Shown here piece after piece: positions 5,046-63,984 of a stretch of 64,000 nt of DNA. Source of the stretch: a virus. Taxonomy: Duplodnaviria > Caudoviricetes. The notes under the pieces were generated by a model that did no database searches, was not told the origin of the DNA, and saw only the letters and a list, made by a program, of their open reading frames with translations. Location of the stretch: positions 63,940 to 127,939 of IMG/VR virus record IMGVR_UViG_3300033076_001341; one strand, 5' to 3'. Both the position numbers and the translations under genes were made by a program. Numbering within the stretch: position 1 is the first letter of the stretch; every line of letters begins with the position of its first letter.

Positions 5046-5691
5046 GGTGTTGTAAATTAAAATGCTCCATCATCTGGACGATCTTCTCATAGAATTCCTG
5101 GATTGTTCCGTTGTTGTCAATGACGTAGTCAAATTCAAAGTCATCCAGGTCGTTCTCACTCGGGTGTACTTCTCCTGGAACAGGGATACTTGAGTTGTTG
5201 ATACGAACGACGATCCCACCATGGCGTTTCACAGCTGCCGCTTCATTCTTAAACCGGCAATCTGTAATCAACCAACGGGAGAGCGTCGTGTGGTAATCAG
5301 CAAACAAGGCGTTTACCCAAGCTTCCGGATGAATGCCGGTGCGGATCGCTTCAGTTCCCAGGCGTTGTAAAAACTCCCGGTACGTCATGAAGTTCCACTC
5401 CTTACCCATCTTGCGCTTCTTGAAGTCCTGGTCTTCCAGTTCTGAAATGCTTGCACCCGTCAGGATGCCGGCAATCTCTTTGAGTTTGTACGCAAACTTC
5501 TTGATCTGCCAGGCACCACTGGTTACATAACCCCGGAGGGAAACATCCAGCAGTTCGCTGGACATCTCCTTCAGAGTGTTGTTGGTTAATGCCAGCAGAA
5601 ACAATTCTGCGGCGGTGTCTTTTCCTGCACCCATCCTTCCGGAGAATGCAATCAGGTTTGGTTTAGAGTTCATAGTCATCGTTTTGTTCAC
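5029..5691 (-). CDS. deoxynucleoside monophosphate kinase
   Basis: P-loop SGRMGAGKDT, REFLQRLGTE, ITDCRFKNE, HPSE. Confidence 0.9.
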   Translation of the reverse strand: MNKTMTMNSKPNLIAFSGRMGAGKDTAAELFLLALTNNTLKEMSSELLDVSLRGYVTSGAWQIKKFAYKLKEIAGILTGASISELEDQDFKKRKMGKEWNFMTYREFLQRLGTEAIRTGIHPEAWVNALFADYHTTLSRWLITDCRFKNEAAAVKRHGGIVVRINNSSIPVPGEVHPSENDLDDFEFDYVIDNNGTIQEFYEKIVQMMEHFNLQHHERVS

Positions 5692-29490: not shown

Positions 29491-29505
29491 AGTGTTAAAA
29501 TTTAG

Positions 29506-29549
29506 AACTGGTGCAGGGAGTCGAACCCTGCACGTGTACCATACCAGTT
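29506..29549 (-). ncRNA. tRNA minihelix-like element (acceptor-like stem + T arm)
   Basis: AACTGGT-ATGGTACACGT-GCAGGG-TTCGACT-CCCTGC-ACCAGTT. Confidence 0.5.
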
Positions 29550-30111
29550 ATTTTGATTTAAGATAATTGCGCAATACGCGGGAAAAGCGTCCTTCAGTGG
29601 AGCCGGTTTGACCGTCAACGGTACCTGCAAACCCGGGGTGATCTTCCAGGATTACATTCTCAATGAGTTTACCGTCCCGGTTGACAACATTGCCGTCGCG
29701 CTTGACCAGTTTAATGACTGTCTGAGAGTTGTCTTTGGTTTCAATGTGAATCATTACACCTTCTGTCTTGGGAATGTCTTTCCAATCCTGAGGAACAGAT
29801 GGTGTACGGGTTTCACGCAACCATACTTCGGTGATCCAACTGAACACGAGAATCTCTTTGAACCCATCGCTTTCCATGGAACCAAAAACAGTTGGAAACA
29901 ACTTGGTTGCCAGCGCTTCTTTTGTTTCATCACTTTGCAGGAACTGTCCGGGAACAGGAATAAATCCTACTTCCAGTTTGTCTGTGACTTTGTCATGTAG
30001 TAAAACAGCACCCAGAGGGGGTAATTGTCCCTCGTCTGTCATTACTTTGGTGATCAGTCTAAGCTGATCTTCTTTGAATTCGTTTAGAATTTCAGGGGTT
30101 AACTGTTTCAT
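29548..30111 (-). CDS. hypothetical protein
   Basis: 187-aa ORF. Confidence 0.65.
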   Translation of the reverse strand: MKQLTPEILNEFKEDQLRLITKVMTDEGQLPPLGAVLLHDKVTDKLEVGFIPVPGQFLQSDETKEALATKLFPTVFGSMESDGFKEILVFSWITEVWLRETRTPSVPQDWKDIPKTEGVMIHIETKDNSQTVIKLVKRDGNVVNRDGKLIENVILEDHPGFAGTVDGQTGSTEGRFSRVLRNYLKSK

Positions 30112-38396: not shown

Positions 38397-38481
38397 TGGC
38401 GCAGGCGACCGGAATCGAACCGGTACTTGTAATAGTCTTTTGCAAGGACCATTACTGGGATACTCAATACCCAACACCTGC
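38397..38481 (-). ncRNA. atypical tRNA-like RNA with a 9-bp anticodon stem (loop contains GCA)
   Basis: Acceptor GCAGGTG/CGCCTGC-G-CCA; T arm ACCGG-TTCGATT-CCGGT; GTAATGGTC/GACTATTAC stem; non-canonical D arm. Confidence 0.7.
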
Positions 38482-38501
38482 TATAACTTTAATCAATCTA
38501 C

Positions 38502-38653
38502 TGGTGAGTACTCCCGGATTCGAACCGGGATTATCAACAAATTCTGATGAACGTTCAGCTACTGGGCGTTCGCAACCAAAAAGGATGCTACTAGGGGTTC
38601 ACGTACTTGTAGGATCTGAATCCGTGATGGTATACGCTATAACCACAGTACTC
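38502..38653 (-). ncRNA. 152-nt tRNA-like RNA with a ~70-nt insert in place of the anticodon loop
   Basis: Acceptor GAGTACT/AGTACTC-A-CCA; T arm CCCGG-TTCGAAT-CCGGG; ATCACGGATTC/GAATTTGTTGAT stem encloses the insert. Confidence 0.7.
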
Positions 38654-38707
38654 ACGCCTGATGAGTAAACTCTTCAGACATAGTTATTTAAACCCTTTGC
38701 ATTTAAA

Positions 38708-40257: not shown

Positions 40258-40289
40258 AGTTGACATGTTTTATGAGATGTCATCTCTTG

Positions 40290-40371
40290 TGATGTAGACA
40301 GGAATCGAACCTGCACAACTTGCGTTACTGCCACCTGAAGACAGCGCGTCTACCAATTCCGCCACTACACC
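40290..40371 (-). tRNA. trnL: tRNA-Leu(CAG)
   Basis: GGTGTAG/CTACATC-A; D arm TGGCGGAATTGGTAGACGC; CTGTC-TTCAGGT-GGCAG; long variable arm; GCAGG-TTCGATT-CCTGT. Confidence 0.9.
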
Positions 40372-41648: not shown

Positions 41649-41731
41649 TAGTCAGGACAGGTACTGCCCCTGTTGCTTGGTCTTTTGCCTTTGCAGACGT
41701 CACCCACGAGTTACTTTTACTCTACCTGACT
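41649..41731 (-). ncRNA. tRNA-like RNA with a GCAA tetraloop hairpin instead of an anticodon loop and a GGCAGTA T loop
   Basis: AGTCAGG/CCTGACT-A acceptor; GAGT/ACTC D stem; ACAGG-GGCAGTA-CCTGT. Confidence 0.65.
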
Positions 41732-41892
41732 AGATAATCATTTGGTCTTCTTCGGTTGTTTTGGTCTGTCCGTTATTTTCTCAGCGAAATAGCAGAATAA
41801 CGTGATGGAAAAACAAAACAGTTTGTAAAAGACATAGCAACCGAGTGCTGTTAGGATTACATGCATATACAGATGTTTAGTTGGTTACTGAT

Positions 41893-42441
41893 TTAGAAAG
41901 GTAAAACGGAGTGCTCATCCTTCAGGAGAGCTAAAGGATTACTCATACCCATGTTTACAGCAATGTCTGCAAGATCTTGCGCATGCTTTATCATGTAAGG
42001 AGTGTGTGCTTTAGAGTTACTTACATACTGGCGTTTGGCTTCAATAGCAAACATGGGTCTTTGAATACGTATGTACAGATGATGCCCCGCTGAGATTGCG
42101 TATCTATGTTCGTAATCATACACGATCTGTTCTACGGGCACCTTAAACACACAGATCTTGATGTCTTTGTACATGCAAGCAGTGCGTTGGATCTTGTTAC
42201 CAAACACATCTGTAGAGACATCACTCAATGAACTCAGGTCTGTTGCTAACTCTACACCTGGCAGTCTTTCTAAGAACTTTGTGATAGACAGGTAATTAGG
42301 AATAAGAACGTCCACGTCATTGGGTTCTCTTTTAATCAGACCCCGATAATACAGCATCAGACTACCACCTATAATCGCAAGTGGCATCTGCAGGGTAAGT
42401 TTTTTGACTAATTCGTCGAGATGTAGTTTATTTAAAGACAT
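41893..42441 (-). CDS. nucleotidyltransferase-like protein (Pol-beta superfamily motif)
   Basis: IIGGSLML...REPNDVDV (GS + DxD); C-terminal KHAQDL. Confidence 0.6.
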   Translation of the reverse strand: MSLNKLHLDELVKKLTLQMPLAIIGGSLMLYYRGLIKREPNDVDVLIPNYLSITKFLERLPGVELATDLSSLSDVSTDVFGNKIQRTACMYKDIKICVFKVPVEQIVYDYEHRYAISAGHHLYIRIQRPMFAIEAKRQYVSNSKAHTPYMIKHAQDLADIAVNMGMSNPLALLKDEHSVLPF

Positions 42442-42470
42442 GATGTTTCGTTATTAGGTACATGGTAATC

Positions 42471-42704
42471 CCCTCTGCACTCAAGTTGTAATCCTCGGCT
42501 ATACCGTAGACATATATTCTAGCTTCAGTCTGCAGTTTTAAAACGCTGTCTCTAGATTACAACTTGCTCACCCTTGGGAGACTGATTAAAGACTGCTATC
42601 TGCCGCAGTATGCTTACACTTAATCAGTGTGGTTTCACATCTCAAGGTTATCTACATTGGAGAGCCCTGAGAAGTCTTCATATCCACGTGAGAATGGTGC
42701 ATTA
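42471..42704 (-). ncRNA. twister ribozyme (P1-type) with a 107-nt insertion
   Basis: UAA-UGCA-CC ... P4 CUCAC/GUGAG, L4 UCCCAAGG, P5 AAGUUGUAAUC/GAUUACAACUU, UGCA-GA-GGG; T1 CCC:GGG, T2 CC:GG; P1 weak. Confidence 0.7.
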
Positions 42705-42760
42705 ATGCTCGTCTTTCCGAGCTGTCAACCAGTGTTCATGTAAAATGCTCTTGGCTTTCG

Positions 42761-42866
42761 TAGTCAGGACAGGATTCGAACCTGTAATCATGGATATGGT
42801 ATCTACGGTGGATTACCCGCCTCACCTCACCACTTATCCTTGCGTCTACCATTCCGCCACCTGACT
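42761..42866 (-). ncRNA. 106-nt tRNA-Leu-like RNA with an extended, anticodon-less arm
   Basis: AGTCAGG/CCTGACT-A; Leu-type D arm TGGCGGAATGGTAGACGC; ACAGG-TTCGAAT-CCTGT; GGATA..TGGT/ACCATATCC long arm. Confidence 0.75.
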
Positions 42867-42885
42867 ATGTTATGTAACTGTTTGA

Positions 42886-43230
42886 TTAGTTTCTGCAAAG
42901 CAGACCGTAAGCATGGATGATTGTGTATGGCATACCGCGATCATTCAATACTTTTATTGTTTCTGGCAAGTCCTCACCTTTTGCTATAGTAGGTTCATTT
43001 AATCTGGAATAGATGATGCTGAGTGCATACGCAGTGTTTTCATCAAACGCTTGTATTTTACAATCTGACGGGCCGGGTATTTCGCCGTTTCTCCACACAA
43101 TGCCTTTTTCCTGAAAAAGCATCATAAGCTGTTGAGCATAGAACTGACGATCACAAGGAATGATGATGAATTTGATCTTTTTATTCATCAGATCGTCAAT
43201 AAGGGTTTGCAGTATATCTAACGGTTTCAT
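42886..43230 (-). CDS. hypothetical protein
   Basis: Probable start MKPLD. Confidence 0.55.
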   Translation of the reverse strand: MKPLDILQTLIDDLMNKKIKFIIIPCDRQFYAQQLMMLFQEKGIVWRNGEIPGPSDCKIQAFDENTAYALSIIYSRLNEPTIAKGEDLPETIKVLNDRGMPYTIIHAYGLLCRN

Positions 43231-43285
43231 AGTTCTGGTTATTGAGGACAAGGTAAAGGGAGCTGTTACACTCCCTTGTTACAAA

Positions 43286-43738
43286 TTAGATGTACATGGA
43301 AACGATCTTGTTAACGAACTCTTCAGAGGTAGTAGAACATTCTGCGAAAGCAGCTTCAACAAGGATGTTGTTAGCAATGTCTTTAGTACAAGGTACACTT
43401 TGACATCTGGCAGATACACTTATATTTGATGGATCATACCTATAACGAGTGGTGCTTGCACTTGTGTAAACATTCTCTTTCTCGTACTTTTTGTCGAATT
43501 GCTCGCGCTTTTTCTCAAACTTATCGATCAAGTCGTTAAGTTCATTACGTTTGGCGCTGATGTCTTCAATCAGTTTAGTTAACTCTTTGAAGTCTTTAGA
43601 TTCTTCAAGTTTGCTAGTCTTCGCTTTTCTTGCTTCGTCATTGGATTTTTCAATCCTCGCTTGTACCTGCCCTGCAAGTGCTTCAGCGAGCGTTTTGGTG
43701 ATTTTAATACCTGTGGTTTTCATGGATGTATTTTTCAT
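43286..43738 (-). CDS. hypothetical coiled-coil protein
   Basis: Start at ATG 43738 or 43723. Confidence 0.65.
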   Translation of the reverse strand: MKNTSMKTTGIKITKTLAEALAGQVQARIEKSNDEARKAKTSKLEESKDFKELTKLIEDISAKRNELNDLIDKFEKKREQFDKKYEKENVYTSASTTRYRYDPSNISVSARCQSVPCTKDIANNILVEAAFAECSTTSEEFVNKIVSMYI

Positions 43739-43795
43739 ACCTGCATTACTGCAACGCACTAGACCTAAATGCTGTTTATACTCGTCTAGTCGAGT
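43736..43795 (-). ncRNA. pistol ribozyme
   Basis: ACUCG-ACUAGA-CGAGU-AUAAA-CAG-CAU-UUAGG-UCUAGU-GCG-UUGCA-GUAA-UGCAG-GU-AUG: P1, 6-bp pseudoknot, AUAAA linker, GCG, P3, GU cleavage site, P2 CAU/AUG. Confidence 0.85.
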
Positions 43796-43809
43796 TGGTT
43801 AATCAATGT

Positions 43810-44137
43810 GGTGCATTAAAGTAATTCAATTGTAATACAAGGCTTGTTGATCTATCTTGTATTTCGACACATTCATTTCCCCATAGTGTCTGATGAGGTA
43901 ATGGAGAATTATTACTTGCTGAGTAAACCCAGCATCGTCCATTTTTTTTATCTAGCACCTTTATCCTGTCTTTGCATTAGCTACTGCAAATGAGAATTGG
44001 GTTACAATTGTTTACTACACTCTGCATTCAGTTGTACTATGTAGGATTTGAACCTAACTGTTTCCACTACTTACATGCTTTACAGCATTGAGCCTAGTAC
44101 AACTGCCTACCCTTGTGAAGTAGGTTGTGATGCATTA
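43810..44137 (-). ncRNA. twister ribozyme with two possible cleavage strands (P1-type, or permuted with a long P1)
   Basis: P4 CCUAC/GUAGG, L4 UCACAAGG, P5 AGUUGUACUA/UAGUACAACU, UGCA-GA-GUG; UAAUGCAUC at 44137 and UAAUGCACC at 43818; AGUAA/UUACU and CAAUUGUAA/UUACAAUUG stems. Confidence 0.75.
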
Positions 44138-44920
44138 CTTATTTGATTACCCGACAAGCGCGGGGTGTGTTTCACTTTCCCTTCAAGAACTAGAGAGAGA
44201 GTAAAGAACATACATAGAGAGAGAGAACAATACTCTAGAGAGAGATATACTAACTCTACCCTATAAGAGTAACACTACTTATCACTACCCAATCATGCTA
44301 CCCAAACGATCTACTCGTACATACGAAACAATCGTAAGAGATGTCTCTCGTACTAGTTGTTAGCCATCTAATGCAACCGCCCCTTGAGACGCAATAGTGC
44401 AGTTGTGCTGTTGGTGTAAAGGGTAAGAAAGGGTGTGTTGGGATGTCACTCTCGCTCTATCACGCTCACTAATAATTAGTTAGCGTTATGATTTTTACTG
44501 CGTAAACTCGACGGATGCCGTATATAGACGGATACTGTCCGGTAAATCCACGTAGTGGACTCAACACTGCACAAGTAAACTCAATTAAGTGAGTGGGGCG
44601 AAGCCCCACGAACCTAGATGCGTGTAACATTCTTGACGTGTACGAGTCCGAGACTACACCGACGAGCGGCTGTGCAGGGTAGTGAGTCGTGAAACAGTCG
44701 TTTTCTAAGTGATTGATAATCAATGACGGAGTCAGGATTTCCCTAGAGAGAGTATCAAGACAAGTCTACTCTCCTGGAACGTACTCCGACAACAGGCTGC
44801 GCCGGGTAGGTGACTCGACTGTTCCGCTTGCGCGGCGCGACAATGGGTGCTGCCGTCAGGTTAAAAGAAACCCGAACGCAGTGAGGACCTTTTTGATAGA
44901 GACGAAAGAGAAGGGAGCGA

Positions 44921-45115
44921 TTAAGCTCCCTTGTTTCGTAGGTTCAGCGCTGCTACCCCTCCGATCACTGTATACGCTCCTATTGTAAAAATGAGTAGCG
45001 TGTACTGAAAAGAGTCCCAGCTCTGAGAGAGAGTGAGTCGAGTAACCGAAATCACTGCGATAGCGCTCCACACGAACAGCGCGAGTGAAGCGTAGAATTT
45101 AAAACCTTTTTTCAT
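44921..45115 (-). CDS. small membrane protein
   Basis: Start MKKGF; two TM segments. Confidence 0.55.
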   Translation of the reverse strand: MKKGFKFYASLALFVWSAIAVISVTRLTLSQSWDSFQYTLLIFTIGAYTVIGGVAALNLRNKGA

Positions 45116-50721: not shown

Positions 50722-51097
50722 GGGGATGAAATGGATTCGACAGCATTGTCGGGGACATGTACACATGCAGAGAGATGATACTGTTCTCTATAATCACGTA
50801 TTACACTAATTAAACGGCAACGTAGAATTATCTGAAATGACTTTTGAAGACGCTATCGCATTCGTTGGTGAATACGAAATGGCAGCCTAAGTCGCGGGGA
50901 GTCATCCCTGGGAACAGAAAATGACACACGAGTATCACGGTTCCTGGACCTAAACCAGGTGGTGGAATCTGACTTCGGTCAACCCTACGGTGCAGACCAT
51001 ATCGTTGACATCAACGAAATGATCAGTACTAAGCATGTAAGATGTACATATCTGCTGCTTTGACTGGACGGCGGTTCGATACCGCCCATCTCCACCA
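50722..51097 (+). ncRNA. ssrA: tmRNA; predicted tag (A)GNVELSEMTFEDAIAFVGEYEMAA* at 50816-50890
   Basis: 5' GGGGATG...GGATTCGAC; 3' GGCGG-TTCGATA-CCGCC-CATCTCC-ACCA; G3:U70 pair; TAAAC before the resume codon; tag ends AA-stop. Confidence 0.92.
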
Positions 51098-51225: not shown

Positions 51226-51300
51226 GCTTCTTAAGCATTGCTGGCGATGCGCGTGATTTGTACCCACGTGAACCTGGTTCGATTCCGGGAAGAAGCTCCA
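51226..51300 (+). tRNA. trnT: tRNA-Thr(TGT)
   Basis: GCTTCTT/AAGAAGC-T-CCA; loop TTTGTAC; CCTGG-TTCGATT-CCGGG; one mismatch in the anticodon stem. Confidence 0.8.
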
Positions 51301-52515: not shown

Positions 52516-52586
52516 TGCGCGGTAGTGTAGCGGTAACACGCAGGACTCATGATCCTGTACCGGAGGTTCGATTCCTCCCTGCGCAA
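52516..52586 (+). tRNA. trnM: tRNA-Met(CAT)
   Basis: TGCGCGG/CTGCGCA-A; GTGT/ACAC D stem; CAGGA-CTCATGA-TCCTG; GGAGG-TTCGATT-CCTCC. Confidence 0.85.
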
Positions 52587-52599
52587 CTAGTCTAACCCT

Positions 52600-62967: not shown

Positions 62968-63984
62968 ATGAGTGTAACAATAGTAGAAGGCAGCAATTCT
63001 GCGAAGCAGGGTTCTGCAATTGCGATCCGACCCTATGTTGAATCAGGTTCAACAAACATGGGTCTTGAAAAGTACAACCTTGCCCTGTACGACGGGATAT
63101 TCCACGAAGAACAGCTGGCATGTTTGGAAAGAAACGGAATCAAGCAGTACGTAACCGGTTTAAACGAGTTCGCTCCGGAGATCCAGTTACTTCCTGAAGA
63201 AGAGAAAAATGCTAAGGTGAAAGAAATCAGAACCTTGGTAGCGACTTTGGAGAAGATGCTTGCTTCTAACGTTCTTGACGTTAATGATTCAGAGTTCTGG
63301 AACAAAGTGAAAGTACTTCGTCCGGACAATGGTGACTTCTGGGACAAGATCATCCTTCGAATGAGTAATGATCCTGTGTACCTAGATCCTTCAAAAGATC
63401 CACACGATTTGATCAAGCTAAGAGCAATCGAAGCTGGTGGGTTCTCTTTAGTAGGTAAATCATTGGAACACGCTCGCACCATGCCGAAACCTCCTAAGTT
63501 TTACTTAGACAAATACGAGGAGACTGCAGGAACGAAGACTGAAATGAAGAAGATCCGTAACAAAGCGTTGGCTGAGTTGCAGAAGCTCTTTGACAAGAAC
63601 GTTAATAAACTCTTGTATGTGTGCAAGGTTATTGATCCTAACAGTGCACAATACCGCAAGAGCACGCCTAACGATGTGATGTATGATATCATGGACCGCT
63701 ACATCAACGGTGAGTCTATTGAGACCAACAAGCGTCGTGCAGCACAAACATTCTTAGACGTTGCCTCTTTGGATATGGAGACATTGAAATTGCGTGCGAT
63801 TGTTAAGGATGCTACCTACTACAAAATGATTGCCTTCCGTGGCGATGGTTTCATCTACCACATGAAGTCAAGCACTGTACTGGGTAAAAACCCAAGTGAT
63901 GTAACTGAGTACTTGAAGAACCCTTTGAATGAACAAATTCTTTTAGACTTAAGCAAGAACCTGGAGAAGTTTTGGAATCAGTAA
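62968..63984 (+). CDS. protein downstream of the major capsid gene
   Basis: Start MSVTI; YLDPSKDPHD, YLKNPLN; crAss-like gene order. Confidence 0.75.
   Translation: MSVTIVEGSNSAKQGSAIAIRPYVESGSTNMGLEKYNLALYDGIFHEEQLACLERNGIKQYVTGLNEFAPEIQLLPEEEKNAKVKEIRTLVATLEKMLASNVLDVNDSEFWNKVKVLRPDNGDFWDKIILRMSNDPVYLDPSKDPHDLIKLRAIEAGGFSLVGKSLEHARTMPKPPKFYLDKYEETAGTKTEMKKIRNKALAELQKLFDKNVNKLLYVCKVIDPNSAQYRKSTPNDVMYDIMDRYINGESIETNKRRAAQTFLDVASLDMETLKLRAIVKDATYYKMIAFRGDGFIYHMKSSTVLGKNPSDVTEYLKNPLNEQILLDLSKNLEKFWNQ

Follow-up and report, generated by a model that had tools for sequence, protein, structure and literature searches.

Twister-like elements, a pistol ribozyme and tRNA-Leu-derived scaffolds on the coding strand of one Caudoviricetes operon

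The sequence examined here (the window) is a stretch of 64,000 nucleotides (nt) from a virus of the Duplodnaviria, Caudoviricetes (IMG/VR record IMGVR_UViG_3300033076_001341, positions 63,940 to 127,939), and forms the second half of that 127.9 kb record; coordinates are those of the window. Between 44149 and 41649 its minus strand carries two twister-like elements, a pistol ribozyme and tRNA-shaped RNAs, interspersed with open reading frames (ORFs), one of which encodes a nucleotidyltransferase (NTase). The confirmed order is twister-like A, small ORF, pistol, two ORFs, the scaffold TLS-1, twister-like B, NTase and TLS-2. A sequence-only reading of the window had the order on this strand right, and all of the elements that it named are present, but it left out the small ORF between twister A and the pistol (43958-43803). 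A unit of about 6.5 kb, whose first element is twister A, is delimited by terminator-like hairpins (45437-45412, 44932-44911 and 38340-38315). We read it as a minus-strand operon of small phage genes, of which the region described here is the first part, and every ribozyme and tRNA-shaped element is on the coding strand of this single terminator-bounded unit. The main elements are as follows.

44006..44149, minus strand: twister-like ribozyme A, compact (twister-2 of the sequence-only reading); family model R1, 94.7 bits, E 2.4e-21
43735..43795, minus strand: pistol ribozyme; Rfam RF02679, 57.7 bits against a gathering score of 34.5, model positions 1-68, full length
42761..42866, minus strand: TLS-1, tRNA-Leu-derived scaffold; Rfam tRNA model, 44.4 bits, and fold
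42459..42716, minus strand: twister-like ribozyme B, expanded (twister-1 of the sequence-only reading); R1, 49.2 bits, E 5.7e-10
41893..42441, minus strand: NTase, 182 residues; minimal nucleotidyltransferase fold of the ANT(2'')/LnuA/MenT/TM1012 group
41649..41731, minus strand: TLS-2; cloverleaf fold, acceptor stem and discriminator A as in TLS-1, reduced D arm and non-canonical T loop

The two elements first taken for twisters have a complete twister layout and are matched by the family covariance model R1, but by no Rfam twister model. R1 was built from an alignment of 45 compact relatives, with the window excluded, and matches exactly two places in the window, copies A and B; a regular-expression scan of the whole genome returned only the same two places. 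Among phages with NTases of only 54-57% identity, the leader upstream of the NTase gene shows nucleotide-level conservation. Pattern scans of IMG/VR with the most conserved block of this leader gave 23 loci and a looser pattern at least 120 matches, nearly all with the same flanking blocks (individual loci are referred to by L and a number), and architecture was parsed from 94 complete copies among the matches listed. Judged by its sequences, this family is a widespread, uncatalogued putative variant of the twister ribozyme in viral contigs, the twister itself reportedly going back to Roth et al. 2014. A literature search that mostly did not extend to subscription journals found no description of this variant or of the tRNA-Leu shells considered below.

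In twisters the U-A cleavage site precedes an A, P2 consists of four pairs with an additional A-G pair, and loop L4 pairs with both L1 (pseudoknot T1, three pairs) and L2 (pseudoknot T2, two pairs), while stems P0, P3 and P5 are optional (PMC5408937, PMC6154101) and P1 is dispensable for cleavage (PMC6154101). The family follows the Rfam twister types (twister-P1, twister-P3 and twister-P5) position by position in the same element order: a variable P1, U|A (the bar marking the cleavage site) then A, a P2 of four base pairs (bp), the 3' G-A, a 3-bp T1, a putative 2-bp T2, and P4 with its U-CCC-AA-G loop. Written out, the 5' part of the family plan is variable P1, U|AA, UGCA, CC, 3-4 nt or a hairpin in the place of twister P3, and a 5-bp P4; the 3' part is the loop (U/C)U-CCC-AA-GG, P4', C, a long P5, GAG, UGCA, G-A, GGG and P1'. 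Both window copies have the U-A site followed by A, the 4-bp P2 and the opposing G-A, as do nearly all of the 94 parsed relatives. Departures from the catalogued twisters are seen in one extra pyrimidine in L4 (the twister loop being U-CCC-AA-GC), in P5, which is always present as against 1% of twisters, and in grafts of 70-240 nt in L4, which about a quarter of the parsed copies carry. Most of these L4 domains consist of two hairpins and their stems covary, as in the change from GUGG/CCAC to GUAG/CUAC in three loci. P5 is closed by a nearly invariant 9-bp stem and is 43-180 nt long in the parsed copies and 14 nt in a minimal member of 83 nt (L114:2528-2610, with CCA opposite UGG and a clean P1 of 7-8 bp); its interiors are mostly unrelated, and within the sub-lineages L012/L058 and L111/L152 the inserts keep hairpins by compensatory changes. 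The idea that P5 is generally tRNA-like was rejected, as among 97 inserts a T arm is found in only two, those of window copy A and L153.

Stems P1, P2, P4 and P5 and pseudoknot T1 covary across the family. In the 45-sequence alignment 91.6% of cells are paired; sliding the partners by one to three columns lowers this to 51.5% or less. Double-sided changes occur at 14 pairs, and in no measure does a single one of 500 shuffles attain the observed value. All six pairs of P1 and three of P4 covary in this alignment, and the middle pair of T1 is C-G in 41 sequences and A-U in the other 4, without exception. Among the 94 parsed copies T1 is CCC:GGG in most, and each of the eight copies with CAC (seven on other contigs, plus window copy A) has GUG opposite. 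P2 has changed on both strands in three members, where C-G is replaced by U-A and UGCA/UGCA becomes UGUA/UACA. T1 and P4 of the two window copies likewise differ from each other by compensatory changes.

In copy A, cleavage is predicted between U44137 and A44136. P2 is formed by 44134-44131 with 44026-44023 and P4 by 44124-44120 with 44110-44106, enclosing L4 (44119-44111); T1 joins CAC (44117-44115) to GUG (44020-44018), and P5 (44104-44030) contains a T-arm-like hairpin (44054-44044). The predicted site of copy B is U42704 / A42703, with P2 at 42701-42698 and 42479-42476, P4 at 42692-42688 and 42571-42567, P5 at 42565-42483, and T1 between CCC (42578-42576) and GGG (42473-42471). A two-hairpin domain of 107 nt (42687-42581) is grafted onto the 5' side of L4, after the 5' strand of P4, and the R1 match to this copy has a 116-nt insertion in the L4 loop positions of the model. 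The 3' end of copy B lies 29 nt before the NTase start codon, and the element is conserved in L004, L006 and L002. Two smaller features belong to these elements.

42707..42722, minus strand: small hairpin directly 5' of the twister B cleavage site (identified by eye only)
43809..43818, minus strand: third copy of the substrate strand of the twister (10 nt, U|AA + UGCA + CC ...), shortly before the pistol

The hairpin is possibly the optional P0 of twisters; by eye, the same hairpin precedes a tRNA-shaped element in L002 and its 3' strand precedes the twister of L120. The substrate strand is a 10-nt word starting U-AA-UGCA, of which three exact copies, all on the minus strand, lie within 1.4 kb. 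Within 43809-43850, the sequence preceding the third copy can pair with the strand that follows the twister A core (44002-44017), over 14 bp with a 1x3 loop, so the third copy may, from its sequence, be an alternative substrate in a circularly permuted twister A that encloses the 51-residue ORF. The duplex (-11.2 kcal/mol) is weak evidence for this, since its margin over shuffled sequences is slight (22 of 500 do as well), and the arrangement is absent from the closest relative, L153. As a separate observation, the 25-30 nt between twister and NTase start codon are themselves conserved (window 42470-42445, minus strand; L002 3050-3077; L004 5967-5995; L006 202-230, where we take the first ~34 bases of the contig, 1-34, to be a likely sequencing-library adapter and not phage). 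This stretch includes a pentamer that is, by eye, complementary to the 3' strand of P4, and that could compete with the ribozyme fold as a possible switch.

Several observations weigh against reading the two copies as self-cleaving twisters. Rfam searches at the gathering threshold and at E<=10, covering the 64 kb, 9 kb of it and the 2.7 kb stretch, gave no match to twister, twister-sister, hatchet, hammerhead or HDV-like models. The twister-P1 and twister-P5 models (RF03160 and RF02684) find nothing in the whole 128 kb genome, and the Rfam twister models miss even a compact relative at E<=10. The partners in T2 are CC:GG in the family, as against GC:GC in twisters; the letters (CC or UC in L2, GG in L4) are complementary, in columns that vary too little to test the pairing. 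The pair that closes L4 is C-G or A-U in the family and a near-invariant G-C in twisters. The P1 columns are mismatched in both window copies, neither of which has a convincing P1 (for A, with the upstream strand). L004, L021 and L067 have A instead of the catalytic G, and the copies in L002 and L009 are without the U|AA strand, so that cleavage would not be universal in the family. The changed nucleotides, together with the P5 insertion, plausibly account for the failure of Rfam on compact members too.

These points could be taken to mean that the twister-like elements are non-catalytic structured leaders that have only a likeness to twister, engaged for instance in protein binding or translation control, and that the tRNA-shaped elements are decayed tRNA genes. 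The missing Rfam matches, the changes at the nominally invariant T2 and L4-closing nucleotides, the members that lack the cleavage strand or the catalytic G, and the conserved 3' flank of the NTase leaders, which by eye could pair with the P4 3' strand, would all agree with this. We nevertheless consider it very unlikely, given that the twister core is matched position by position, including U|AA, G-A and U-CCC-AA, that a covarying T1 pseudoknot would have no reason to exist outside a twister fold, that the changed T2 and closing pairs stay complementary, and that the scaffolds are kept nearly letter-for-letter across distant contigs, unlike decaying genes. Read as twisters, the changed "invariant" nucleotides amount to natural compensatory experiments on the T2 pseudoknot and the L4 closing pair, and the large grafts in L4 and P5 show the tolerance of the twister fold.

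The pistol proposed from the sequence was borne out by a full-length Rfam match well over the gathering score. The element has P1, P2 and P3 of RF02679 as well as its 6-bp pseudoknot and its G-U junction: 6 nt of the P1 loop are complementary to the P2-P3 junction, with pseudoknot letters that differ from the consensus, and apart from a short P3 and a P2 with three standard pairs in the aligned register, there is nothing notable about it. From PMC6154101 and the alignment to the Rfam model, cleavage is predicted within the G-U junction, between G43740 and U43739; an in-frame AUG (43738) follows after 1 nt and a further AUG (43723) after 16 nt. A phage context has been described for the pistol class (PMC6154101), and the window agrees with it. 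A further class, the hatchet ribozyme, lies about 1-1.5 kb upstream of twister-like elements, on the same strand, at two other loci, so that mixtures of ribozyme classes within one phage region recur.

L153 8591-8727, plus strand: hatchet, 81.6 bits
L043 5635-5767, plus strand: hatchet, 78.1 bits

The tRNA mimics of the sequence-only reading, said to extend to 38.4 kb, are real; two pass the Rfam tRNA model and the others were recognised by fold. Besides TLS-1 and TLS-2 the unit contains the following.

40289..40371, minus strand: true tRNA-Leu(CAG), found by ARAGORN
38490..38655, minus strand: tRNA-shaped RNA, acceptor stem and T arm around about 130 nt
38400..38481, minus strand: tRNA-shaped RNA; Rfam tRNA model, 38.6 bits; 17-nt insert in place of the anticodon loop

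TLS-1 has the acceptor stem AGUCAGG/CCUGACU, discriminator A, a D arm of tRNA-Leu type, a canonical T arm, and a structured insert of 40 nt in place of the anticodon loop; the counterpart of TLS-2 in L006 keeps canonical D and T arms. The pair at 38400..38655 is followed by the terminator-like hairpin at 38340-38315. The D arm of the true tRNA-Leu(CAG) is nearly identical to that of the scaffold family (the D loop of TLS-1 is one base shorter) and its T arm is close; scaffold D arms differ from it by at most one base. CCA is encoded neither by the scaffolds nor by the true tRNA-Leu. The 13-nt 3' end of the scaffold occurs in 23 of 154 loci, in up to four copies at a single locus. It invariably shares the strand of the twister-like element, and by our estimate about 0.05 matches would be expected by chance in that sequence. 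Between copies the acceptor stem, D arm and T arm are kept nearly letter-for-letter, while the middle of 30-130 nt is unrelated, and the scaffolds fold as cloverleaves with a long irregular arm. ARAGORN reports only tRNA-Leu(CAG) between 37 and 46.5 kb, the other elements appearing only when introns are allowed. Intron-bearing tRNAs were rejected as an explanation of the scaffolds, since an anticodon loop is not conserved and insert length varies between 30 and 130 nt. By sequence and fold, the scaffolds are a putative uncatalogued RNA family of tRNA-Leu-derived shells with a hypervariable middle, and their conservation argues that they are functional. Elsewhere in the window, a minihelix between two ORFs (29505-29550, minus strand) joins an acceptor stem to a T arm whose loop is canonical, and has neither a D arm nor an anticodon arm.

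Most of 99 copies of the twister-like element have the start of a same-strand ORF 20-100 nt downstream, with ~30-39 nt the commonest distance, and canonical tRNAs within 1.5 kb of these copies are all on the strand of the element. The downstream ORFs fall into 46 clusters among the 64 scored, and a function common to them was rejected; Pfam gave only domains of unknown function (DUFs) and one weak HNH match. One of these genes, at L080 838-2301 (plus strand), encodes a protein with DUF2828 and DUF7788, the former of which we take to be related to the RNA-binding TROVE/Ro domain.

From the RNA elements, whose covariation, position and orientation relative to the genes are observed directly, we infer cleavage, processing by RNase P and RNase Z, and effects on mRNA stability or translation, and consider it moderately probable that a long primary transcript of the operon is cut at fixed points by self-cleaving RNAs together with tRNA-type processing. 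Three RNAs would cleave themselves, twister A after U44137, the pistol after G43740 and twister B after U42704, each leaving a 2',3'-cyclic phosphate upstream and a 5'-OH downstream. Twister A would remove the 5' leader of the unit. Since twisters are cut at their own 5' edge, the folded ribozyme would be retained by the mRNA that follows, forming a compact cap at its 5' end about 30 nt ahead of the start codon. The pistol would cut at its own 3' edge and leave the next ORF with almost no leader. Twister B would cut 57 nt after TLS-1 and then, still folded, cap the NTase mRNA at its 5' end, 29 nt ahead of the start codon. The host enzymes RNase P and RNase Z would probably cut at tRNA-Leu and at five or more scaffolds, and this excision would release stable small RNAs and separate the flanking cistrons. 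That the transcript is cut in this way had been proposed in the sequence-only reading, and this part holds up in so far as the elements are real, on the same strand and 20-100 nt before ORFs; the tie that it drew to the NTase does not. The position of most family members at this distance from diverse same-strand ORFs makes transcript processing plausible. For bacterial twisters and hammerheads, mRNA processing is a suggestion and not an established role (PMC6765202).

Processing of mRNA alone is insufficient for the closely spaced copies, which leave no room for an ORF. At least two copies occur in 13 of 112 locus-strands, or about one locus in eight, some near tandem. Closely spaced or tandem copies are found at L124 9870-10481 (minus strand), L014 12885-13311 (minus strand) and L063 9193-9547 (plus strand), and in L063 and L124 the 3' end of one copy directly abuts the cleavage site of the next; L012 and L114 also have multiple copies. 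These arrangements and the lineage-conserved P5 inserts, which mRNA processing alone does not explain, leave room for a different account, namely that twister-like elements and scaffolds are primarily display scaffolds whose variable domain is a small stable or circular RNA for phage-host conflict, with mRNA processing secondary. It would agree with the unrelated P5 interiors within a nearly invariant closing stem, with the compensatory retention of P5 hairpins in L012/L058 and L111/L152, with scaffold arms kept nearly letter-for-letter around a hypervariable middle, and with the tandem, close or multiple copies. The 5'-OH and cyclic-phosphate ends of twister products can be joined by RtcB-type ligases, which is the principle of the synthetic Tornado system. 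Most copies, however, are single and at leader distance from an ORF, and variable peripheral stems are common in ribozymes without having a function, and we regard this account as unlikely. Unlikely too is the stronger proposal that self-excising twister shells and tRNA-Leu shells cut out by RNase P/Z make libraries of effector RNAs in which the hypervariable domain is active, the twister products perhaps being circularised by an RtcB-type ligase. If this were true, the synthetic tRNA-scaffold and Tornado designs would have an equivalent in nature, and the products would be phage effector RNAs of a new class.

The gene downstream of twister B had been called a nucleotidyltransferase, and the fold upholds this. 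Its product matches nothing in Pfam, PHROG, NCBIfam or PADLOC, and comparison of its profile with PDB sequences gave chance matches only. A profile search of 1.8 billion representatives returned 111 relatives, and no Pfam domain, including PF08843 and PF10706, was found in the protein or in the ten relatives tested. An AlphaFold model (pLDDT 79.5) aligns with ANT(2'')-Ia (Z 12.1), MenT3 (11.6), TM1012 (11.5), MenT1 (11.2) and LnuA (10.5), scores that are effectively tied; Foldseek gives a probability of 1.0 for the NTase fold, and structural neighbours in the Atlas carry PF08843 or PF10706. The motif G-G-S ... D-V-D is invariant in four aligned relatives. The likeness to MenT/AbiEii, ANT(2'')-Ia, LnuA and TM1012 lies in the same fold over 140-168 residues and the motif G-[GS] ... 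D-x-D, whereas at the sequence level there is no match to Pfam, NCBIfam or PDB entries; the window protein is encoded by a stand-alone phage gene with no antitoxin identified nearby. On the evidence of the model, this is a protein of minimal nucleotidyltransferase fold.

A twister-like leader lies ~30 nt upstream of the NTase in the window, L006 (90% identity), L004 (54%), L002 (57%, with a copy lacking the cleavage strand), L120 (48%) and the cut contig L155. The co-occurrence of the NTase with these RNAs thus persists in its clade down to 48% identity; among more distant homologues, L156 and L157 lack such an RNA and L158 has a degenerate copy 1.75 kb away. Starting from the RNA motif, the NTase is downstream at only one (L120) of about 95 loci listed. 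Scaffolds or other tRNA-shaped RNAs flank the NTase in the window, L006 and L002, and are absent nearby in L004 and L120. The sequence-only reading had supposed that the NTase modifies or repairs the released ends. In its favour, RNAs and enzyme could form one module in which the enzyme tails, repairs or blocks ends: the leader directly precedes the gene from 90% to 48% identity, tRNA-shaped RNAs flank it at three loci, and its fold is tied with MenT1 and MenT3, described in their entries as nucleotidyltransferase toxins. Both toxins extend tRNAs by nucleotides at the 3' end. As a matter of general enzymology, nucleotides are not added to a 2',3'-cyclic phosphate, and 3' ends of this kind could not be extended. 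Since the leader also precedes at least 45 unrelated gene families (46 families in all among 64 ORFs scored) and cyclic-phosphate ends are not substrates, end repair by the NTase is unsupported, and the single locus reached through the RNA, the distant homologues without an intact copy, the loci without a scaffold, and a fold that is equally close to the small-molecule enzymes ANT(2'') and LnuA make the module as a whole highly improbable. The NTase looks like one cargo gene among many with such a leader and not a partner of the RNAs, and, short of biochemical evidence in its favour, this part of the sequence-only reading is best given up.

Cutting of transcripts at tRNAs (tRNA punctuation) is known from mitochondrial transcripts and from phage T4, whose tRNA cluster includes extra stable RNAs. 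The likeness lies in tRNA-shaped elements between the cistrons of one transcript, cut by RNase P and 3' nucleases; the window differs from such systems in that most of its elements cannot decode and are hypervariable shells, of which there are up to four per locus. The nearest described case of ribozymes beside phage tRNAs is that of the theta (HDV-like) ribozymes, which are likewise small self-cleaving RNAs in phage tRNA regions with a proposed role in processing neighbouring RNAs (PMC10879173). They are of a different class and directly abut the tRNA end, whereas the site of window twister B is 57 nt after the scaffold; for most members of the twister-like family, no tRNA is found within 1.5 kb. 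A Crassvirales review names group I introns only. What self-cleaving ribozymes do in bacteria and phages is still an open question (PMC6765202), and in the window a single operon combines three putative ribozymes, belonging to two classes, with tRNA-type elements, all with defined spacings to start codons, which makes the mRNA-processing hypothesis directly testable by end-specific RNA sequencing.

The remaining ORFs around these elements are listed below.

43803..43958, minus strand: small ORF, 51 residues from GTG, with an ATG at 43932; between twister A and the pistol; without known family
43286..43738, minus strand: ORF of about 145-150 residues, coiled-coil-like; without family
42886..43230, minus strand: ORF of about 114 residues; without family
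41738..41866, minus strand: ORF of 42 residues, hydrophobic by eye; also called as a gene in L006

L004 has a likely homologue of the ORF at 42886..43230, similar by eye only, ahead of its NTase (5306-5635). Searches of Pfam, PHROGs, NCBIfam and PADLOC gave nothing meaningful for the NTase and its neighbours, blastn of a 2.8 kb stretch against a phage collection gave no match, and promoter scans (sigma-70-type and TAnnTTTG) found nothing beyond chance in the region. Clusters of CT-rich, partly palindromic repeats lie just upstream of twister A (44200-44330, minus strand), with similar repeats in the corresponding region of L004 (4440-4810 and 5190-5270), and may be promoters or operators of the unit. 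A GC-rich hairpin repeat occurs in two copies at ORF ends (43241-43280 and 44896-44935, minus strand), the second of which scores as terminator-like. Outside the unit, a transfer-messenger RNA (tmRNA) gene with a 24-residue tag is found at 50722-51097 (plus strand, 93 bits), neighboured by tRNA-Thr (51226-51300) and tRNA-Met (52516-52587); L014 also has a tmRNA.

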